Of a stretch of 64,000 nucleotides of DNA, positions 53,256 through 62,603 are shown piece by piece. Numbering within the stretch: position 1 is the first letter of the stretch; each line of letters opens with the position of its first letter. The position numbers and the translations under genes were made by a program. The DNA lies in contig VFKA01000010.1 in assembly GCA_009885795.1 (NCBI GenBank), positions 4,695 through 68,694 of the forward strand. The letters run 5' to 3'. A model generated the notes under the pieces. It was given only the letters and a program-made list of their open reading frames with translations. It ran no database searches and was not told the DNA's origin. Source of the DNA: Rhodospirillales bacterium (GTDB taxonomy: Bacteria; Pseudomonadota; Alphaproteobacteria; Dongiales; Dongiaceae).

Positions 53256-55025
53256 TTAGCGCCCGGCGGGGGCCGAAACGGCCAGCTTCCGGTCGTCGCC
53301 GCCAGGCGGAGAGCCATGGAGGCCGGCGAGGAAGTCGGTCTTGGCCTTGCCGCGGCTGAGCTTGCCCGACGAGGTTTGGGGCAGGGCATGGGGCGCCACC
53401 AGAACGACCTCCGTTTCAACCGCGAAAGACCGGCGCAAGGTCGCCGACACTTCGGCGGCCAGCGCCTGTCGGGCCGAGGGCTCGATCAGGCGGCATTGCA
53501 CGAGAACGACGACATGCTCGCCGGCATCGTCATCCTCGACCGAAAATGCCGCGGCATCGCCGCGACGCAAAGCCGGTATTTCCTCGACCGTCCACTCCAG
53601 GTCTTGCGGCCAGATGTTGCGGCCGTTGACGATGATGAGGTCCTTGGCACGGCCGGTGATGACGATCTGGCCATCGACGAGGTAGCCGAGGTCGCCGGTA
53701 TCGAGCCAGCCCCGATCGTCGAACACTTGGCGCGTTGCTTCCGGCTCGTTGAAGTAACCGGCGGTGATGCTCGGGCCCTTGGCGAAAATCCGCCCTAGCC
53801 TGCGCTCCGGCAGACTCTGCCCGTCGGCCCCACGGACCTCGATATGATGGCCGCCGAGCGGGCGCCCGCACAGAACGAACTCGCGCGAGCGTGTGCCATC
53901 GCCGTCGCCCGCGGGCTCGGCGATCTTGTCCTCGGCCAGCCGGCGGCGGTCGACGCGGTCGAGCAGGACGCCGCGGTCGAGGGCCGAGAAGCTGAGCGCC
54001 AGCGTCGCCTCGGCCATGCCGTAACTGGGCACGAAGGCCTCGGCGCGAAAGCCGTAGGGGCCAAAGGCCTCGGCGAACCGCGCCAGGATACTCGGGCGTA
54101 TCATGTCGCCGCCGATGCCGGCGACGCGCCAGCGGCGAAGGTCGAGTCCCATTGCCGATGCATCGGCAGCGCGGCGCGCGCAGAGCTCGTAGCCGAAGGA
54201 CGGGCTGAAGGCCAAGGTGCCGCCATGGCGCGAAAGAAGTTGCAGCCATGTCAGCGGCCGGCGCGCGAAATCCCGCGTGGTCATGGTGTCGACCGACATC
54301 TGCGCGAAGAGCGGCGTCAGCAGGAACCCGACCAGCCCCATGTCGTGATAGAGCGGCAGCCACGACGCGCACCGGTCGCCGGGAACCATCCTAAGACCAT
54401 CGACGACGATGGCGCGGCAATTCGCCGCCAGCGCGCGCTGGCGGATATCGACCCCGAGCGGGAACCGCGTGCTGCCGGAGGAGTATTGCAAGTAACTCGA
54501 CTCGTCGGGCCCGAATGGCCGCGGATCGACGCCGCCTTCGGGCAAGGCCTCGAAATCGGCGGGCGATCCGACCAGCGCCAGTCCCAGCCCCGCGCCGGCC
54601 TCGCGCAAATAGTCCATGAGTTCCGGCGGCGCCATGGCGGCGCTTGCGCCCGAACCTTCGATCTGCCGGCGCAACGCGCCGATATAGGCATCCTTGCCGC
54701 CAAGCCCGATCGGCAGCGCGACCGGGACCGGCAGAATGCCGGCGTACTGACAGGCCATGAACATGATGACGAAGGACGGGTCGGTATCGGCCAGCATCAG
54801 GAACCGCGCGCCCTTGGCTAGGCCGGCCCGGATCAAGCGGCGCGCTTGCGCCACCGCCAATTCGCGCAGCTCCGCATAGCCGAGTGCCCGCGCCAGTTCC
54901 CCGCGCACGGAGAAGAAGTTAAGCCCGGTTCGTCCGCGCGCGGCGTAATCCAACGCTTCCGCCAGCGTATCGAACGCGGCGGGGCGAAGGGGCAGGGTGT
55001 CGTTGGTTGATGGTGTCGGGTCCAT
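53256..55025 (-). CDS. fatty-acyl-AMP ligase / acyl-ACP synthetase-like (AMP-binding family)
   Basis: ORF 53256..55091 (start 55091 or MDPTPSTNDT at 55025). AMP-binding motif LQYSSGSTRFP and C-terminal ...TSSGKLSR. Confidence 0.75.
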   Translation of the reverse strand: MDPTPSTNDTLPLRPAAFDTLAEALDYAARGRTGLNFFSVRGELARALGYAELRELAVAQARRLIRAGLAKGARFLMLADTDPSFVIMFMACQYAGILPVPVALPIGLGGKDAYIGALRRQIEGSGASAAMAPPELMDYLREAGAGLGLALVGSPADFEALPEGGVDPRPFGPDESSYLQYSSGSTRFPLGVDIRQRALAANCRAIVVDGLRMVPGDRCASWLPLYHDMGLVGFLLTPLFAQMSVDTMTTRDFARRPLTWLQLLSRHGGTLAFSPSFGYELCARRAADASAMGLDLRRWRVAGIGGDMIRPSILARFAEAFGPYGFRAEAFVPSYGMAEATLALSFSALDRGVLLDRVDRRRLAEDKIAEPAGDGDGTRSREFVLCGRPLGGHHIEVRGADGQSLPERRLGRIFAKGPSITAGYFNEPEATRQVFDDRGWLDTGDLGYLVDGQIVITGRAKDLIIVNGRNIWPQDLEWTVEEIPALRRGDAAAFSVEDDDAGEHVVVLVQCRLIEPSARQALAAEVSATLRRSFAVETEVVLVAPHALPQTSSGKLSRGKAKTDFLAGLHGSPPGGDDRKLAVSAPAGR

Positions 55026-55122
55026 GATCGGCGATGCGGAAAGACGGGGGCTCGGATCGGCCGGCGCCGGTGCCCTCTTAGCAAATTCCATTGCCGCGCC
55101 ACAAGCGGATTGGCCGATTGAA

Positions 55123-55192
55123 GTGCCTCATGGTGAGGAGTCGGCGAAGCCGGCGTCCTCATCCCGAGCTTGTCCAGGGACGAACCATGAGA
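55123..55192. repeat. Family A/B intergenic repeat
   Basis: gtgcctcatggtgaggag...gtcctcatcccgagcttgtccagggacgaaccatgag. Confidence 0.7.
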
Positions 55193-55206
55193 CCGCGGTC
55201 GCGGAT

Positions 55207-56973
55207 TTAAGAGGCGGCCACCCGAATCGCCGCCCGCGGCATCTCGACGACCCGTTCGTCCTGAATCTGGTACACGCGGTCGGCCATGTCGACCCAGGCC
55301 GGCTGATGGGAAATGGCCAGCAGCGTCAAGCCGCTACGCTCCGACAGTTCGCGCAGGTTGCGGCAAATGGCGGCCTCCGTCTCGGGATCGAGCGCGCTGG
55401 TCGCCTCATCGAGGATGATGAGCGTCGGCCGGTGAATGAGCGCGCGCGCCACCGCAATGCGCTGACGCTGGCCGCCCGACAGAAAGCCGCCGCGCTCGCC
55501 GATGATGGAATCGATGCCCTCCGCGAGCCGGGACACGAAATCCCATGCCCCGGCGGCCTCGAGCGAGGCCTTGGCATCCTCCCGGGTGAGCGCCGGATCG
55601 TCGAGCGTGACGTTGGCGAGCACGGTGTCGTGAAAGAGGATGACTTCCTGGGGGACGTAACCCACCATCCCGCGCCATTGCAGAAGATCGACGGCGCGCA
55701 AGGAGCGGCCATCGAGACGAACGTCGCCGGAATCCGGTTCGTACAGCCCGAGAATGAGATCGGCGATCGTCGTCTTGCCGGCGCCCGACGAGCCGATGAT
55801 GGTGGTGACCTTGCCCGCGGGGATAGTCAGGCTGACATCGGCGAGTACCTGCTTCGCGCCGAAGGCAAAGGAGACGCGGTCGAATTCGCAGGCGCGCGCG
55901 AGGCTCGGCGTCTCGCTTCCGGCCAGCGTCTCTCGGGCTTCCCTGGCCTCGGCGATCGTGTCCAGCATGTTCCAATAGGCGGTCTCGTGAATGGCGGCCG
56001 ACTGGAAGTCGAGCTGGGCCTTGCCGACCGCGGCCACGGTGCGGGTGAGCAGCAATCCCATGACGATCAGCTCGGCAACCGGCAAATGCCAAACGGTGAT
56101 CGCGACGTACAATGCGCCCGCGAGAAATATGCCGATCATGGGCTCTTGCAGATTGCGGGCGGCCTGCTTGCCGAAGACTTGCTTCCGCAGGGCGGTGTTG
56201 AGGTCGCGCAGATAGCCCGCGAACAAGATGCCAAGCTGCAGGTGCTTGGTCATGGCCTTCAGCGCCTTGATCCCGCCGAGCAAGTCGGTCAACCGCGCCA
56301 CCAGGGTCTGCGTGTGGCGAGTCTGCTGCTTGCCGGCCCGCCGCGAGAGATTGACGACGCGATTGAGCGCCAGGATCATGACCGATCCGATGACCGCGGC
56401 GAGCAGGCACAGCTTCCAGGAAATAAGGAGCGCCAGCAACAGGTAGACAACCGTCTGCACCGAGCCCGCGATCAGCAGCGAAACCGACAGGAACGCCTGC
56501 GAGGCGCGCGTGGCCTCGCCGCTGATGGCGTTGGCGAACCGGCCGATCGGCTGTTTGGTGAAATAGCTCCATCGGACTTCGAGTAGCCGCTCGACCAGGC
56601 TGAGCCGCAAGCCCGTGGCGATTTCGGCGACCACGTAGCCGACGTAGTTCATGGTCAGCAGTATCAACGCCGACTTGGCCAGCAGCCCGAAAACGACAAT
56701 CAGCAGCAGAACCCCGATATCGACCGGCAGGCCGAGCGCGCCCAAGACATCGGTGACGGCGCTATGGATGGGCGATTGATCGGTGCCGGCGTCGCCCGCG
56801 GCCAGACTGAGGACGGGAAGCAGGCTGGCGATGCCGACGCCCTCGGCCAGGCTGGCGAGCAGCAGGCAGCCGACCACAATGTATTGGCGCCGGGGCGCGA
56901 TGCCGCGAAAGATGGCCAGCACACCGCGTCGGGGCGTGGCGATCGGAGGCGTCGATGTGGCGGGGTGACGCAT
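55207..56973 (-). CDS. ABC exporter, fused TMD-NBD (MsbA-like type I exporter)
   Basis: 588 aa with a six-span N-terminal half, Walker A GSSGAGKTT, signature LSGGQRQR and Walker B LIILDEATS. Confidence 0.85.
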   Translation of the reverse strand: MRHPATSTPPIATPRRGVLAIFRGIAPRRQYIVVGCLLLASLAEGVGIASLLPVLSLAAGDAGTDQSPIHSAVTDVLGALGLPVDIGVLLLIVVFGLLAKSALILLTMNYVGYVVAEIATGLRLSLVERLLEVRWSYFTKQPIGRFANAISGEATRASQAFLSVSLLIAGSVQTVVYLLLALLISWKLCLLAAVIGSVMILALNRVVNLSRRAGKQQTRHTQTLVARLTDLLGGIKALKAMTKHLQLGILFAGYLRDLNTALRKQVFGKQAARNLQEPMIGIFLAGALYVAITVWHLPVAELIVMGLLLTRTVAAVGKAQLDFQSAAIHETAYWNMLDTIAEAREARETLAGSETPSLARACEFDRVSFAFGAKQVLADVSLTIPAGKVTTIIGSSGAGKTTIADLILGLYEPDSGDVRLDGRSLRAVDLLQWRGMVGYVPQEVILFHDTVLANVTLDDPALTREDAKASLEAAGAWDFVSRLAEGIDSIIGERGGFLSGGQRQRIAVARALIHRPTLIILDEATSALDPETEAAICRNLRELSERSGLTLLAISHQPAWVDMADRVYQIQDERVVEMPRAAIRVAAS

Positions 56974-57107
56974 GTCGAGCGGCGATGCGGATGCCTAGTG
57001 AGAGGATACCAGGCCCTTAGATGCGCCGTTCGGCGATCATCCGCAAGTCGGCCTTCCCAGGGCCTTCTTAAGGCCCGTGGACCCAAGGCGTCAAGTTGAC
57101 GCCGGCC

Positions 57108-57233
57108 CTCTTTCGAGACGCGCCCTTGGCAGGGCGCTCCTCAAGATGGGGAAAGCCAACGACAAGCCTCATGGCGAGGAGGCTGCGGCAGCTTCCGTCC
57201 TCATCCCGAGCTTGTCGAGGGACGCACCATGAA
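57108..57233. repeat. Family A/B intergenic repeat (long composite copy)
   Basis: ctctttcgagacgcgcccttggcagggcgctcctcaag ... cctcatggcgaggaggctgcggcagcttccgtcctcatcccgagcttgtcgagggacgcaccatgaag. Confidence 0.75.
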
Positions 57234-57328
57234 GCCGCCAGTCGGCAAATGCGATAGCCCTGGGCCCGCGCTTGTCTGGCCCGTACGGCTGGTGTATCAA
57301 GCGCGGCCGTCGCCAAGGAACCACATTC

Positions 57329-58606
57329 ATGACGATTCAATCGGCCTGGAGCGAGACTCGGGTCAAAGCGATGCTCGCGGCGTATAGCTTCCGCTATCAG
57401 AACGTGGAGCTGCCCTACGGCCTGCAAACCGGCGGCAATGACCGTTCGCCGACGGCGAACAGCATCTTCCCGGCGGACATGACCGGAAAGTCCGTGTTCG
57501 ATCTCGGTTGCATGCACGGCTATTTTCTGTTCGAGGCGGAGCGGCGCGGCGCTACGAGGATCTTCGGCGGCGATATCAACCCCGAGAACGTCGCCAAGTG
57601 CAAGATGCTTGCCGACTGCAAGGGTTCGCGGGCGGAGTTCGCGAAGTTCGACATCGAGCGGGACGCGATCCCCGGTAAGTTCGACTACGTGCTCTGCCTC
57701 AACGTGCTGCATCACTTGCGCAATCCTCTGGCGGCGCTCGAGAAGCTCATCGACGCGACCAAGGAATGCCTGGTCCTGGAAGTGGCCGCCTTCAACAAGA
57801 AGGCGCGGAATGAATCCTGGGTGCCTTACTGGTTCGGCGGACTGCTCAACCGCCTGCCCATCTTCTATGTCGGCGGGGCGAGCCGGGACGCCAAGGGAAG
57901 CCGCGGTTTTTTCATGACCGAGAGCGCCATCGTCGCGCTTCTCAACCACCACCGGCGCGATTTCGCGCGCGTGAAGATCGTGCATGTCGGCGGCCAGAAA
58001 GGGCTCGGCAAGGGGCGGTTCATCGCCATCGCGCCCAAGCGGCGGATCGAGCATCTCCATATTTTCGCCGGCACGAACACGATAGGAAAATCGACTCTGC
58101 TCGAGAGTTTCCGGCGCGGCGAGAACCCGCTTGTCGCCGAGAAACTGGGTCTGGGTCCGGTCGCGGATTGGCGCCACCAGATGTACAACAAGCTGCCCCA
58201 GGCGCCGGAAGCCGAAATGCCCCACATGCTGCTCGAATACAACATCGGCAAGTATCTGTTCGACGGCCCGCTGCATCACTACGAGCGCGGCGTGCTGGAC
58301 CTCATCAAGGTCGCGGAAAAAGTGACCATTACGACGTTCTGGCTGCGGCCCGAAATCTTGCATGAGCGCTACATGACGCAGCGCGTGCCGGAATCGTGGT
58401 TGAAACGCCGCCTGCGGTCCTCGCGCCGGCGCCGGATGGAACGCAAGCTCGGTGCCCTCTATGCCGATCCGGCCCGTTTCGAGGCGATGTATCGCGATTG
58501 GTTCGCGTTCGCTCGCCGGCACGCCGCCGTCAACCACGTCATCCTGCAGGAAAACGGCTATCGTGTCGTATCGATCGAGGATTGGGAGCGTGGCGAGCGC
58601 GGCTGA
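57329..58606 (+). CDS. fusion protein: class I SAM-dependent methyltransferase + P-loop domain of unknown function
   Basis: Start MTIQSAWSE within ORF 57272..58606. Motif I VFDLGCMHGYF and post-I FGGDINPE. The C-terminal half has Walker-A-like FAGTNTIGKSTLL. Confidence 0.6.
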   Translation: MTIQSAWSETRVKAMLAAYSFRYQNVELPYGLQTGGNDRSPTANSIFPADMTGKSVFDLGCMHGYFLFEAERRGATRIFGGDINPENVAKCKMLADCKGSRAEFAKFDIERDAIPGKFDYVLCLNVLHHLRNPLAALEKLIDATKECLVLEVAAFNKKARNESWVPYWFGGLLNRLPIFYVGGASRDAKGSRGFFMTESAIVALLNHHRRDFARVKIVHVGGQKGLGKGRFIAIAPKRRIEHLHIFAGTNTIGKSTLLESFRRGENPLVAEKLGLGPVADWRHQMYNKLPQAPEAEMPHMLLEYNIGKYLFDGPLHHYERGVLDLIKVAEKVTITTFWLRPEILHERYMTQRVPESWLKRRLRSSRRRRMERKLGALYADPARFEAMYRDWFAFARRHAAVNHVILQENGYRVVSIEDWERGERG

Positions 58607-59615
58607 GAGGGCGCCGTCCCGCGGTTTCCTGGGGATGGTGCTGGCCATCGTCCTCGGGGTCGCGCTGTCCGCGGGGGTGCTGGAGCTCGCCGTGCGTTTC
58701 GTGCTCGATGACGGGCTCAATTTCGATCTTGAGATGTGGAAATACGCCAAGGACCTGAAGGCGGTGAGTCCTACGCCCGGCGTCGGGCACGAGCATGTTC
58801 CCGACACATCGGGGATCTACATGGGCGTTCCCGTATCGATCAACTCGGCGAAACTGCGAGACCGGGAAATGCCCCTGGCCAAGCCGGCGGGTATGATCCG
58901 CATCGCCATGGTCGGCGATTCGTTTACGTTCGGTTGGGGCGTCCGGGTGGAAGATACGATGGCGAAAATGCTGGAAGCGAAGTTGAACGCCGGATTGCCC
59001 GCCCCGCGCTTCGAGGTCGTCAATTTCGGTGTCGGCAACTACAACACGTCCATGGAGGTCGCCTCGTTCCTGCACGATGGGTACCGGTTTCAGCCGAACG
59101 TCGTGATTCTCAACTATTTCATCAATGACGCGGAGGAGACGCCCAAGCGCGGCAACAACGTTCTCGCCGAACACTCATACGCCGCCGTCTACATCGCCGG
59201 ACTCGTCGACGTTGTGATGAGGACATATTTCGGCAAGAGCGATTGGCGCGCCTACTACGACGGCCTCTACGAAACGGACGCGCCCGGATGGCGGCGCGCC
59301 CGGCAAGCGATCGCCGATCTGGCCGGCTTCTGCCGCGAGCGCGGCATCGGGCTGCTCGTGGTCAACCTGCCCGAGCTCCACCAGCTGGACCCCTATCCCT
59401 TCGAACGCGTGACCGCGGCAATCGGCGCTCTGGCCGCGAAAGAGCGCGTGCCCTTTCTCGATCTGCTCCCGGCGATACGCGGCCATGAGCCATTGAGCCT
59501 TTGGGTGACGCCGACCGACCCTCACCCCAATGCGACCGCCAACCGGGCCTTTACCGACGCTATTGCGGCGAAGCTTGGCGCGGATTTTCCCGATTTGGCG
59601 ATCGAGGGCGATTGA
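58590..59615 (+). CDS. SGNH/GDSL hydrolase-family protein, N-terminally membrane-anchored
   Basis: GTG 58590 (or ATG 58635) within ORF 58452..59615. Block I MVGDSFTFG, block III GVGNYN, block V DPHPN. Confidence 0.7.
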   Translation: MASAAERAPSRGFLGMVLAIVLGVALSAGVLELAVRFVLDDGLNFDLEMWKYAKDLKAVSPTPGVGHEHVPDTSGIYMGVPVSINSAKLRDREMPLAKPAGMIRIAMVGDSFTFGWGVRVEDTMAKMLEAKLNAGLPAPRFEVVNFGVGNYNTSMEVASFLHDGYRFQPNVVILNYFINDAEETPKRGNNVLAEHSYAAVYIAGLVDVVMRTYFGKSDWRAYYDGLYETDAPGWRRARQAIADLAGFCRERGIGLLVVNLPELHQLDPYPFERVTAAIGALAAKERVPFLDLLPAIRGHEPLSLWVTPTDPHPNATANRAFTDAIAAKLGADFPDLAIEGD

Positions 59616-59630
59616 CCCGAGGCCGGGCGG

Positions 59631-60764
59631 TCACTTTTTCCACGCCGCCTTGAGCATCTCGACGAGCTTGGCCGTGCCGATCGGCGACAGATGTCCCTGG
59701 TTCACATAGAGCGGCAATCCGCCGAAGGGCGACCCCGCTTCCTCCCGCGCCGCGTTGGTGGCGTCGAGGAAATCGACGACCGTGAAGCCCGCTTGCCTCG
59801 CGGCATCCAGAACCGCGCGCTTCTCCTCCCGGAAATAGGGAAAGTCCCAATGGCTGTGGCCGCGGACCCGCATGACGTCGGGCGCCGCATTGTAGATCTT
59901 CGGCAAATAGACAAGCGTCAGGCGGTCGAGCGCGTTTCGCTTGGCGAATTCGGACAGAAAGGGAATGAGTTCCTCCGGACGGCCGTAGGGCTCGCCCGGC
60001 GCGTGGTCGTTCTCGGAGAAGAAGTAGACGACCTCGCGGATGCCGCCCGCATATCGCCGTTCGGCGCGTTCGAGCATGCAGACATTGTCCTTGGCGGCGG
60101 CGCCGTTGACGCCGATGTTCACGTATTGCCGGGTGTCGTCTCGCGCCTGCAGCTGCGAGGCGAGGGTCTCCCAGTCGTTCACCATCGAACCGTTGGCGAT
60201 GCTGGACCCGGTCACGAGCACCTTGCGCGGCGACTCGACAGAGGGAAGCGTCAGGCGCTCGCCCTCGGCGTTGCTCCGGTGTCGAATTTTACGGAAGGCA
60301 TAGCGGTCCAGGAACTGTTGGAGACGCGGCGGCAGCACCCTGGCCGTGTCGTAGAAGGCGTTCATCGGGTCGAAGCTATTGAACAAAGTCGATCGCAAGA
60401 GAACCATGGTCTTGTCGATATTGGGACGCTGCGACCAGCAGCCGTCGATCTCGATATTGGCGCTGGCTGCTTCCGTCTTGAGTTCGGCATAGGGCGCGTT
60501 GCCGAGGCCGACGCCGTTGGCCTTCATGTCGTCGATCATCGATTCGAGTTCGTCCAGACTCGAAATCGTCAGCAGCCTGTCGTCGGCCGGCAGTTCGGCA
60601 TCGCTTCGCTTTTGGTCCTTCAAGAGATTACTGACGAACCAATAGGTGACGCTGGTGTCCGGCTTCTTGAGCCGTGCGACGGCATAGAGACCCTCGCCAG
60701 CCAACAGGATGACGACGAGGACCAGGACGACAGTCATCGCCGCGAAGAGGTGCTGCTTGCGCAT
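59631..60764 (-). CDS. membrane-anchored hypothetical protein, possibly SGNH/AlgX-like fold
   Basis: 377 aa with an N-terminal TM anchor. Weak GDS-like VTGSSIANG and C-terminal NQGHLS. Coding frame is clear; function is uncertain. Confidence 0.4.
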   Translation of the reverse strand: MRKQHLFAAMTVVLVLVVILLAGEGLYAVARLKKPDTSVTYWFVSNLLKDQKRSDAELPADDRLLTISSLDELESMIDDMKANGVGLGNAPYAELKTEAASANIEIDGCWSQRPNIDKTMVLLRSTLFNSFDPMNAFYDTARVLPPRLQQFLDRYAFRKIRHRSNAEGERLTLPSVESPRKVLVTGSSIANGSMVNDWETLASQLQARDDTRQYVNIGVNGAAAKDNVCMLERAERRYAGGIREVVYFFSENDHAPGEPYGRPEELIPFLSEFAKRNALDRLTLVYLPKIYNAAPDVMRVRGHSHWDFPYFREEKRAVLDAARQAGFTVVDFLDATNAAREEAGSPFGGLPLYVNQGHLSPIGTAKLVEMLKAAWKK

Positions 60765-60774
60765 GAACGTCTCT

Positions 60775-61698
60775 CTACGCCGAATAACCGAACAAAGGTA
60801 CCAACCGGATTCGCACCATCGCCTCCATCGCGGCGATTTCGGTGGGCGTGAAATAATCGCGAAATCCGCCGATCTTGCCGCGCCGGACCTTGAACGAATC
60901 GGGGTTGGAGGGATCCCGCGCCGAAAGGCGGCGCGAGCCGAAATGGTCGCCGCGCTCCATGTCCTTCAGGCGCTCGAAGGAGGCGAAGGCCACGGCCTCC
61001 GCGATCTGCTCGTCGGTGAAGGAGTCGCCGATGAAATCCGCGATCCGCTTGAGTTCCGCGGCCGGTTCCTTGCGCATGTCTTCGTAGCGGACCAGCAGGC
61101 CGCGCTCGATGCGGGCCAGAATCCCCGCCCATTCGTTGAGGTAGCCGATGATGAACGGCAGGCCGTGATCCTTGCTCATCACGAAGTCGACAAGCGGCAT
61201 GTCGGCGATGTTCGCGGGCAGGTTCACGATGTCGCGACGGTAGGATTTCGTCCGATGCACGGAATGGAAATAATAGGAGACGGCGATATCGCAAGGGTGG
61301 CGTGCCAGGAAGATCGTCTTCTTGCCGTCGAATTCGGTCTCGGGCGGCGGCAGGCGGCTGGCGATCCGCGCATAGGTGCCGTGCGCGAACAGGAACACCG
61401 GTATCGCGGAATTCATCCCGTGGTAGTTGTCGGACTGAAGCAGCGCGTCGGCGGGAAGGCCGAACTTCACCTGGTAGAGCCGCGACAGCATGACCCTGAG
61501 CCAGGTGCGCCCGCTCTTGGCGAAGGCCATCACCGCCAAATCCGCGCGCCGCAGCCGGCGAAGCTCGCGCCGGCCCCGCTGCCGGCGCTGGAGGTAGAGC
61601 CGCGTCGGCCGCGGCAAGGGCGACAAGGCCGCTTGCGCGACGCGCGCGGCGATCTCGCGAAAAAGCCTTCGCATCGGGGGCGGCTCCGGGGAAGTCAC
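60775..61698 (-). CDS. PAPS-dependent sulfotransferase (cytosolic Sulfotransfer_1-type)
   Basis: 307 aa with 5'-PSB loop FAKSGRTWL, 3'-PB motif LARHPCDIAVSYYFH, and RRGKIGGFRDYF. Confidence 0.85.
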   Translation of the reverse strand: MTSPEPPPMRRLFREIAARVAQAALSPLPRPTRLYLQRRQRGRRELRRLRRADLAVMAFAKSGRTWLRVMLSRLYQVKFGLPADALLQSDNYHGMNSAIPVFLFAHGTYARIASRLPPPETEFDGKKTIFLARHPCDIAVSYYFHSVHRTKSYRRDIVNLPANIADMPLVDFVMSKDHGLPFIIGYLNEWAGILARIERGLLVRYEDMRKEPAAELKRIADFIGDSFTDEQIAEAVAFASFERLKDMERGDHFGSRRLSARDPSNPDSFKVRRGKIGGFRDYFTPTEIAAMEAMVRIRLVPLFGYSA

Positions 61699-61840: not shown

Positions 61841-62603
61841 GTGGAAATGCACCAGGTGCGGTACTTTCTCGCCGTCTGCGAGACGCTGAACTTCACGCGC
61901 GCGGCCGAGGCCTGCCATGTGTCGCAGCCGTCGCTCACCCGCGCCATCAAGGCGCTCGAAGGCGAGTTGGGCGGGCTGTTGTTCCGGCGCGAGCGCGTCC
62001 ACACGCAGAATGTGCACCGTGGGGCCGCAACAATTGGCGGCCTTTCTCGCTCGGTTCTTGCAGCGCCATCCCGGCATCCAACTGAACCTCCAGGAGGTGG
62101 CGCCGAATGCCCTGGACGACGAGCTTCTGGACGGCAAGCACGACGCCGCGATCGTCGCCTCGCCCGTTCCGCTGCACGAGCGCTTCGACGCCAGGACGCT
62201 CTACCGGGAACGCTACGTGATCGCCTTTCCGCCCGGACACCGGTTCCGCGCCCTGAACCGGATCGAGGTGAAGGATCTCGACGGCGAGCGCTACCTGACG
62301 CGCACGAATTGCGAAGCCCTGAAATTCCTGGGCGACATGATCGAACGCCATGGCGCCAAGGTCAGCGAACCCTATCGCAGCGAGCGCGAGGACTGGATTC
62401 AGGCGATGGTGCTGGCCGGCATGGGTATCTGCTTCATTCCCGAGCAACTGGCGACGCTCCCCGGGCTCATGACCCGGCCGGTCGACGATCCGCTGGCGAC
62501 ACGCGACGTCCGGCTCGTCACCGTCTCCGGGCGCGAACACGGCCCGGCGCTCCGCGCCTTCCTGAAGGAGGCGAAGGGCTTCGACTGGCAGGGGTCGAAC
62601 TAG
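61841..62603 (+). pseudogene. LysR-family regulator with internal deletion/frameshift
   Basis: HTH frame [56 protein letters not shown] (frame of 61841) switches near 62008 to the frame of ORF 61917..62603 ([29 protein letters not shown]...). About 40 residues of linker/start of the effector domain are missing. Confidence 0.65.

Follow-up and report, generated by a model that had tools for sequence, protein, structure and literature searches.

The 64,000-nt stretch of Dongiaceae DNA analyzed here (contig VFKA01000010.1 of assembly GCA_009885795.1; hereafter the window) carries a sphingolipid locus, and directly beside it lie five genes, at positions 55207–61698, that encode an ATP-binding cassette (ABC) half-transporter, a methyltransferase–P-loop fusion protein (MT fusion), two membrane-anchored SGNH-type proteins (GDSL1 and SGNH2), and a sulfotransferase dependent on 3'-phosphoadenosine-5'-phosphosulfate (PAPS). 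Do these genes serve the sphingolipid, or another product? We found that they do not form one conserved block. The ABC exporter is a fixed part of the Dongiaceae sphingolipid locus, and the other four genes occupy a slot beyond it. Judged from sequence comparisons, the link to sphingolipid genes is strong for the ABC exporter and moderate for the MT fusion, GDSL1, and SGNH2, and for the sulfotransferase it exists at the genome level only.

Organization of the Locus

The five genes and the last gene of the adjoining ceramide operon are arranged as follows.

53256..55091, minus strand: aasR-type fatty acyl-AMP/ACP ligase (AMP-binding match; NCBIfam fatty acyl-AMP ligase, 798 bits against a cut-off of 600)
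55207..56973, minus strand: ABC half-transporter (ABC_membrane and ABC_tran)
57329..58606, plus strand: MT fusion, 425 aa (Pfam methyltransferase families)
58635..59615, plus strand: GDSL1, membrane-anchored SGNH/GDSL protein, 326 aa (Lipase_GDSL_2, 51 bits against a cut-off of 33)
59631..60764, minus strand: SGNH2, membrane-anchored SGNH-like protein, 377 aa (Lipase_GDSL_2, 27 bits, below the same cut-off of 33)
60775..61698, minus strand: PAPS sulfotransferase, 307 aa (Pfam Sulfotransfer_1 over residues 53–294, 73 bits against a cut-off of 22)

All five open reading frames (ORFs) of the block were confirmed, with their strands and domains, by the ORF list and by Pfam and NCBIfam matches, and each is full length without internal stops. 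The initial annotation had described this layout correctly: a half-transporter upstream of an acyl-ACP-synthetase-like gene, on the same strand and with a repeat between them (the gap measures 115 nt and contains a repeat at 55120–55195); a divergent methyltransferase/P-loop fusion with an anchored GDSL protein; and, convergent to these, a second anchored SGNH-like protein and a PAPS sulfotransferase. GDSL1 starts 29 nt past the MT fusion on the same strand. The genes for SGNH2 and the sulfotransferase, 10 nt apart and convergent to the MT-fusion/GDSL1 pair, are probably co-transcribed; a promoter and terminator scan gave counts no higher than those in shuffled sequence. The likely start of the MT fusion is 57329 rather than the ORF start at 57272, and that of GDSL1 is 58635 (MVLAIVLGV...), while an alternative ATG at 61674 is possible for the sulfotransferase. 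The sequences of GDSL1 and SGNH2 each begin with a hydrophobic N-terminal segment.

To the left of the block, Pfam and NCBIfam matches delineate a complete Caulobacter-type sphingolipid locus. Clustered there are spt (NCBIfam serine palmitoyltransferase, 654 bits against a cut-off of 500), the carrier ligase gene aasR, cerR, a gene for a bCerS-like GNAT protein, cpgABC-like genes (a CDP-alcohol phosphatidyltransferase, a DAGK-type kinase, and a third protein), a metallophosphoesterase, NTP-transferases, and LptF/LptG paralogues (LptF2 and LptG2), in synteny with 48 other spt loci. The conserved aasR-cerR-acp-spt ceramide operon ends with aasR, which is 48–66% identical and syntenic in other spt loci.

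The ABC Exporter

The product of the gene beside aasR comprises a six-helix transmembrane domain (PF00664, residues 71–293) and a nucleotide-binding domain (PF00005, residues 377–526) with intact cofactor motifs, which is the architecture of a type IV ABC exporter half-transporter. In 18 of 22 spt-positive Dongiaceae, an orthologue with 41–66% identity shares a contig with spt and lies no more than 10 kb from it, towards aasR, and the gene stood beside aasR-cerR-acp-spt in 11 of the 12 loci of relatives that were aligned. Both spt-negative Dongiaceae also lack it. Among 40 relatives, 23 carry both spt and the ABC gene, 15 carry neither, and spt alone and the ABC gene alone occur once each. In a tree with the genome's two MsbA-like paralogues as outgroups, the locus-type ABC proteins formed their own clade, separated from these paralogues by a long branch.

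The initial annotation had named the protein an MsbA-like half-transporter. The half-transporter architecture, common to MsbA- and PglK-type flippases, is present, and MsbA is among the best NCBIfam models (HepA, 281 bits; MsbA, 232 bits; PglK, 188 bits). All of these scores are far below the cut-offs, which are 602 for the MsbA equivalog TIGR02203 and 1000 for PglK. The protein is not the housekeeping MsbA, since better candidates are encoded on contigs C73 (505 bits) and C64 (402 bits) and the locus-type proteins form a separate clade.

In Caulobacter, the gene beside aasR (CC_1166) encodes a Wzx/Polysacc_synt-type protein that has been proposed, but not shown, to be the phosphosphingolipid flippase (PMC11324152, S1 Text), and the inner-membrane sphingolipid flippase of that organism is still unidentified (PMC11324152; bioRxiv 10.64898/2026.04.12.717747). 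No Wzx/Polysacc_synt-type gene lies beside aasR in the window, the ABC gene taking that position, and none in the genome exceeds the Pfam cut-off; the sole PF01943 match is below it and on another contig. We read the ABC gene as a non-orthologous replacement at the position of the Caulobacter Wzx flippase, with a presumed flippase activity of its own, and its product as a candidate for flipping or exporting the sphingolipid at the inner membrane.

Could the transporter instead carry a non-lipid substrate, such as a peptide or a drug, with the block acting as a small-molecule modification and efflux unit? It scores appreciably, though below threshold, against type I secretion and bacteriocin exporter models, and the sulfotransferase has its closest solved relatives among the small-molecule sulfotransferases (SULTs). 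We regard this as very improbable. The position beside aasR is conserved throughout the family, the presence of the gene tracks spt, and the three best-scoring models listed above are lipid/glycan flippases. The protein has no peptidase domain, and among the annotated ORFs beside the ABC gene we identified no membrane-fusion, outer-membrane, or precursor-peptide gene.

As a separate observation, genomes G007 and G015 (loci L099 and L153), and also G009, G021, and G022, have two divergent ABC genes (40–43% identical, in separate clades) in place of the single one. This two-gene arrangement could encode a heterodimeric exporter.

The Variable Slot

Beyond the exporter, gene content changes from genus to genus. 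In G016 and G017, 2.5–5.7 kb separate the ABC gene from the aminotransferase gene that is also found on the right flank of the block, and the intervening genes differ. The slot of other Dongiaceae genomes is occupied as follows.

G016: a 322-aa unnamed protein and an ELM1-type glycosyltransferase
G001 and G017: a 920–960-aa AMP-binding/carrier/PlsC-acyltransferase fusion and an ELM1-type enzyme
G008: a small methyltransferase, a GDSL1 orthologue (62%), an MBOAT protein, and another GDSL protein
G006 and G020: a GDSL1 orthologue (55–57%), with a methyltransferase (G006) or an AlgX-like SGNH protein (G020)
G019: a second CDP-alcohol phosphatidyltransferase
G014 and G018: aldo-keto reductases and other genes
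G010 and G023: an MT fusion (46–47%), a second diverged copy of it, two Sulfotransfer_3 genes, and nonulosonic-acid-type sugar genes

Because these contents differ between genera, the slot behaves like a diversifying tailoring region. It is hypervariable, and several of its occupants are lipid-specific rather than glycan-specific. The AMP-binding/carrier/PlsC fusions of G017 and G001 (L091:8639-11404 and L092:10492-13365, respectively) adjoin the locus ABC gene and suggest an additional lipid acylation in those genera.

The Methyltransferase–P-Loop Fusion

The MT fusion consists of a CmoB-like class I S-adenosylmethionine (SAM)-methyltransferase (approximately residues 1–225), with intact cofactor motifs, and a divergent P-loop domain resembling nucleoside monophosphate (NMP) kinases (approximately residues 226–425); it has no hydrophobic segment. 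The AlphaFold2 model had a predicted local distance difference test (pLDDT) score of 91. Its predicted fold was closest to CmoB, and a search with the whole model returned methyltransferases only. The C-terminal domain, modelled with a pLDDT of 87, matched adenylate kinases, guanylate kinases, and PPK2 only weakly (E ~1e-3, template modelling (TM) score ~0.4), and its kinase activity is putative. The idea that this domain is a hidden sulfotransferase or related to adenosine-5'-phosphosulfate (APS) kinase was also considered; a profile search against PDB sequences found generic P-loop proteins only, the fold search placed no sulfotransferase in its top 50, and the sulfotransferase idea was rejected. 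A stand-alone paralogue of the P-loop domain, with 28% identity, is present in a 229-aa open frame at C68:154003-154587.

The full-length family comprises 133 protein clusters and 55 genome loci, distributed over Alphaproteobacteria, Myxococcota, Desulfobacterales, Nitrospirota, Planctomycetota, and other groups. Within 10 kb of the fusions, we found ABC orthologues (36–54% identity) in approximately 10 loci and sulfotransferases of the window type (P0001-type) in approximately 10 loci. Sphingolipid genes were nearby in four loci, two from Dongiaceae, one from a Myxococcota metagenome-assembled genome (MAG), in which the fusion and an ABC gene flank cpg genes, and one from a deltaproteobacterial MAG, in which the fusion lies near cpg genes. 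Other recurrent neighbors are ELM1-type transferases (12 loci) and an unnamed 305-aa protein (9 loci), together with CMP-sugar synthetases, NeuB, KdsA, 2-oxoglutarate (2OG) oxygenases, APH-type kinases, and Sulfotransfer_3 proteins.

The Two SGNH Proteins

GDSL1 carries VGDSFTFG (GDSF) and TDPHPN (DPH) motifs, which together with its Pfam score place it among SGNH proteins; the Asp–His spacing is DxH, not DxxH. It is presumably a periplasmic acyl-esterase or O-acyltransferase. The family is large and well conserved. In G006, G008, and G020, an orthologue (55–62% identity) is found upstream of the ABC gene and in the same direction, and in G008 it also adjoins an MBOAT gene. The GDSL1 homologue of Aestuariivirga adjoins sulfotransferases, a 2OG oxygenase, and an ELM1-type gene, and homologues outside Dongiaceae (L163, L164, and L165) often adjoin a carbamoyltransferase-SxtJ-DUF5989 trio.

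SGNH2 has a conserved domain of ~150 aa followed by the SGNH domain. Its family is small (32 clusters), and the invariant Ser188 and His358 are kept in the window copy. One homologue (46% identity) is embedded between LptG2 and FA_hydroxylase/bCerS, co-directional and with near-zero gaps (LptF2-LptG2-SGNH2-FA_hydroxylase-bCerS). A second is part of an ABC-ELM1-GDSL-SGNH2-pyruvyltransferase string, and two more occur with a sulfotransferase in G002. At L103:9001-11109 (GCA_973406985.1), an SGNH2 homologue and FA_hydroxylase separate LptG2 from bCerS as insertions in an otherwise collinear sphingolipid operon. A search of the window's genome for an MBOAT partner of the SGNH proteins found no homologue of the G008 MBOAT (tblastn, E ≤ 1e-10).

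The Sulfotransferase

The sulfotransferase contains AKSGRTW (5'-phosphosulfate-binding, 5'-PSB), LARHPCDIAVSYYFH (3'-phosphate-binding, 3'-PB), and RRGKIGGFRDYF, and the 5'-PSB loop, the 3'-PB motif, and the C-terminal RRGKxGG motif are all conserved in 15 family members, which bears out the motif assignments of the initial annotation. A candidate catalytic His occurs in FAHG, the equivalent of FTHD in most homologues; some family members lack it, and a gap falls at this site in the pairwise alignment with SOT16. Among solved structures, plant SOT16/18 and human SULT1A1 are the nearest relatives (E = 1e-16); no NCBIfam model matched. The enzyme is of the cytosolic type, without a membrane segment. 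PAPS can be made in this organism, since an APS_kinase domain (226 bits) is encoded at C60:69896-70339; PAPS synthesis was the genomic prerequisite named by the initial annotation.

The closest relative of the sulfotransferase is a paralogue of the same genome (55% identity) on contig C29, where a second paralogue shows 43%. Both belong to an islet at C29:56250-60600 (L029:10889-15256), situated between hut genes and an EamA transporter gene, with the order 2OG oxygenase, sulfotransferase (43%), 2OG oxygenase, sulfotransferase (55%), and a 302-aa unnamed protein that is 75% identical to the slot protein of G016. The pairing suggests hydroxylation followed by sulfation. Elsewhere, sulfotransferase homologues adjoin MT fusions in at least seven loci, lie between ELM1-type genes in G137 and G428, and in G397 form an ELM1-ABC(44%)-sulfotransferase-unnamed-protein string 295 kb from spt.

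The unnamed proteins define a 300–322-aa family (L029:14351-15256, L102:8615-9580, L032:8320-9234, and L157:10485-11384) with a mean column identity of 69% and an invariant DPD motif. They accompany sulfotransferases, MT fusions, and ELM1-type genes, and in G016 the family member adjoins the ABC gene. Pfam, NCBIfam, and PDB-profile searches returned no match, and a reading of the DPD motif as that of a GT-A-like glycosyltransferase found no support in these searches. The genome (3.46 Mb) has eleven Sulfotransfer_1 matches, a high number for its size. Four of them (C21, C97, C101, and C82) lie in open frames of 680–900 aa, which suggests large multidomain proteins.

Co-Occurrence with spt

The occurrence of the accessory genes was compared with that of spt in a sample of 400 alphaproteobacterial genomes, with spt called at E ≤ 1e-100 and the P0001-type sulfotransferase at E ≤ 1e-30. 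The background frequency of spt was 51 of 400 genomes (13%). The sulfotransferase occurred in five genomes, all five of them spt-positive (Fisher p = 3e-5; by genus, 2e-4; the test ignores shared ancestry), and 17 of 19 alphaproteobacterial carriers of the MT fusion were spt-positive (p = 8e-13 against the same background, by a test that likewise ignores shared ancestry). The carriers span several families. The cultured Aestuariivirga litoralis KCTC 52945 combines spt with the trio of sulfotransferase, ABC protein, and MT fusion.

The initial annotation had proposed a lipid or glycan tailoring module whose tie to the sphingolipid was only positional, and had named as decisive whether the five-gene block follows spt across genomes or occurs mainly in spt-less genomes or beside polysaccharide genes. 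The tie goes beyond position in the synteny and clade of the ABC gene and in the recurrence of GDSL1, the MT fusion, and SGNH2 at sphingolipid loci. It is uneven, the sulfotransferase being linked at the level of the genome, and the five genes are not a conserved unit. Two of them, the sulfotransferase and the MT fusion, are tied to spt-positive genomes and do not occur mainly where spt is absent, although the block as such does not recur at spt loci outside Dongiaceae, and homologues elsewhere lie in part beside polysaccharide genes.

A Proposed Tailoring Pathway

The reading we lean towards, as somewhat better than an even bet, is that a sphingolipid-anchored molecule is sulfated and methylated in the cytoplasm, flipped by the ABC protein, and edited in its acyl groups in the periplasm. 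The acceptor, the order of steps, and every catalytic activity in this pathway are what we infer from the gene content. The step order follows from the properties of the proteins: neither the sulfotransferase nor the MT fusion has a hydrophobic segment, their cofactors (PAPS, SAM, and a nucleotide) are cytoplasmic, and the SGNH proteins are anchored. On the cytoplasmic face, the sulfotransferase would sulfate a hydroxyl of the head group or the lipid, and the MT fusion would add a methyl group, possibly on a phosphate installed by its own P-loop domain, by analogy with WbdD. The ABC protein would then flip the new anionic ceramide lipid, or its decorated form, across the inner membrane, GDSL1 and SGNH2 would add or remove an O-acyl group on the periplasmic face, and the locus's own LptB-F2-G2 would carry out the final extraction. 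Candidate acceptors are the ceramide phosphoglycerate head group, a hydroxyl of the lipid, and a sugar that enzymes encoded outside the block would supply.

A sulfated sphingolipid is a prediction. In its most specific form, which we put forward tentatively and well short of an even chance, the product would be a sulfated, probably methylated and O-acyl-edited anionic ceramide lipid, a bacterial counterpart of eukaryotic sulfatide, the P0005-type ABC protein would be the inner-membrane sphingolipid flippase that displaced the Wzx-type protein, and the slot would act like an O-antigen locus for sphingolipid head groups and so diversify a surface lipid from genus to genus.

Evidence Against the Pathway and Alternative Products

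Several observations weigh against this pathway. The phyletic tests are confounded by shared ancestry. The five-gene combination was found in none of the other genomes examined. Within the 20 kb examined at each of 47 non-Dongiaceae alphaproteobacterial spt loci, no homologue of the sulfotransferase, the MT fusion, GDSL1, or SGNH2 was present, and an ABC orthologue was present in one. Homologues of the four accessory genes are mostly found away from spt, and their neighbors there are often sugar-pathway genes (ELM1-type, NeuB, KdsA, CMP-sugar synthetases, and carbamoyl- and pyruvyltransferases), so that a polysaccharide or lipopolysaccharide (LPS) acceptor fits equally well. The window's genome has no homologue of ELM1, MBOAT, or NeuB, which makes the acceptor here less clear; it also renders the sugar-rich version of the sister genera unlikely here.

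The same neighborhoods would be expected if the four accessory genes decorated another surface glycoconjugate (LPS core or O-antigen, capsule, or exopolysaccharide), with at most the ABC protein serving the sphingolipid and the slot being simply prone to recombination. Homologues occur with NeuB, KdsA, CTP_transf_3, and HAD genes, with ELM1-type transferases, with a pyruvyl transferase, and with the carbamoyltransferase-SxtJ-DUF5989 trio; their absence from the 47 loci, as well as the lower G+C content, dispersed repeats, and broken regulator described below, count in the same direction. The known substrates of bacterial sulfotransferases are Nod factors, LPS, or capsule, and polysaccharides are O-acetylated by SGNH/MBOAT pairs. 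Yet slots of sister genera hold lipid-specific enzymes (the acyl-ACP-synthetase/PlsC fusion and the second CDP-alcohol phosphatidyltransferase), the SGNH2 homologue noted above lies within a sphingolipid operon, nearly all genomes with the MT fusion or the sulfotransferase family are spt-positive, and no glycosyltransferase or sugar-nucleotide gene is found in or near the block. A glycan attached to ceramide would merge this explanation with the sphingolipid pathway. We consider a separate glycoconjugate the main alternative, though less likely than not. We had initially read the block as a strain-specific glycan islet, as the closest sulfotransferase homologues in relatives are not near spt, and dropped that reading once synteny emerged for the ABC gene, GDSL1, the MT fusion, and SGNH2.

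The sequence of SGNH2 and the surroundings of the block weigh against the sphingolipid pathway in another manner. At two catalytic-motif positions conserved in its family, SGNH2 is substituted, with GSS in place of GDS and NQGH (Asn for the triad Asp) in place of DxxH. The accessory genes have a G+C content of 0.61–0.64, compared with 0.66–0.71 for the core sphingolipid locus (the window is at ~65%). The right flank consists of a LysR-type regulator gene, divergent from the sulfotransferase–SGNH2 pair and split over two frames (HTH_1 in the frame starting at 61841, LysR_substrate in the frame 61917–62603), and then a class III aminotransferase gene. The split is either a frameshift or an assembly error, the genome being in 103 contigs. 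Together, the split regulator and the lower G+C content indicate that the cassette may be recently acquired, poorly regulated, or decaying. The noncoding and flanking features are as follows.

55120..55195, no strand assigned: structured dispersed repeat resembling repetitive extragenic palindromic (REP) elements, in the aasR/ABC gap (sequence, blastn, stem-loop fold)
57160..57240, no strand assigned: second copy of the REP-like repeat, in the spacer between the divergent ABC and MT-fusion genes (blastn; fold z-score -3.1, minus strand)
61841..62603 (region to 62746), plus strand: LysR-type regulator gene, split over two frames (HTH_1 and LysR_substrate)

The repeat, ~70 nt long and folding into a stem-loop, has 24–28 blastn matches genome-wide (~25 copies), and its two local copies bracket the ABC gene. 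The best other copy (C73:5355-5423, 97% over 69 nt) is located ~130 nt upstream of the best MsbA candidate (C73:3510-5222), which may reflect a common regulatory element or mere coincidence.

At its extreme, the cassette would be a decaying or silent acquisition, its intact ORFs no longer used and without a current product. The split LysR gene, the substitutions in SGNH2, the G+C content below that of the flanks, and a gene combination unique to this genome would all agree with such a state. We judge it improbable, as the five ORFs are full length, the cofactor motifs of the sulfotransferase, the methyltransferase, and the ABC nucleotide-binding domain are intact, SGNH2 has kept its nucleophilic Ser and its His, and the LysR split could itself be an assembly error.

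Comparison with Known Systems

The sphingolipid pathway is best compared with the Caulobacter crescentus locus CC_1152-CC_1168 (CCNA_01212-01226). The two loci have in common the core aasR-cerR-acp-spt, the bCerS-type GNAT gene, cpgABC-like genes, metallophosphoesterase and NTP-transferase genes, a second LptF/LptG pair, and a transporter gene directly beside aasR, which is of the Wzx/Polysacc_synt type there and an ABC half-transporter here. The Caulobacter genes for CC_1167 (CDP-glycerol glycerophosphotransferase-like) and LptC2 are replaced in the window by those for the sulfotransferase, the MT fusion, and the two SGNH proteins. We know of no sulfated or methylated sphingolipid in Caulobacter.

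WbdD of Escherichia coli O9a, a kinase-methyltransferase that caps the O-antigen with methyl phosphate, is likewise a two-domain cytoplasmic protein, encoded beside an ABC exporter of a lipid-linked product, that combines a class I SAM-methyltransferase with a phosphotransfer-type domain. It appears among the fold matches of the MT fusion through the methyltransferase domain, with CmoB being closer. The second domain of WbdD is a eukaryotic-like protein kinase and that of the MT fusion a small P-loop NMP-kinase-like domain, so the likeness is a functional analogy only. With NodH, LpsS, Stf0/Stf3, the SULTs, and SOT16-18, the cytoplasmic window sulfotransferase shares the PAPS-dependent fold and the 5'-PSB and 3'-PB motifs; it differs from NodH, LpsS, and Stf0/Stf3 in being closest by sequence to cytosolic SULT/SOT enzymes and in belonging to a family tied to spt-positive bacteria. 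The O-acetylation systems AlgI/AlgJ/AlgX, PatA/PatB, and OatA likewise use membrane-anchored SGNH proteins that face the periplasm, and G008 pairs its GDSL1 orthologue with an MBOAT protein. The present genome differs from them in lacking a homologue of that MBOAT, its SGNH proteins could be esterases, and SGNH2 has an additional N-terminal domain and an altered triad.

In the literature that we searched, we found no paper linking sulfotransferases to bacterial sphingolipid clusters and no description of a sulfated sphingolipid in bacteria. The core locus is known, but that literature describes neither an ABC-type exporter in the place of the flippase, nor the variable tailoring slot, nor the sulfated or methylated sphingolipid predicted here.

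Sphingolipid synthesis and Lpt-like export in Caulobacter have been worked out only recently, and the gaps that remain are the inner-membrane flippase and the variation of head groups among species. The present locus offers a specific ABC subfamily as a flippase candidate, one that tracks spt and lies beside the ceramide operon throughout the family, and an adjoining slot that swaps tailoring enzymes between genera, as surface-antigen loci do. If the proposed pathway is true, it would add a new class of bacterial lipid and would give functions to the MT fusion, to SGNH2, and to the unnamed 305–322-aa partner protein.

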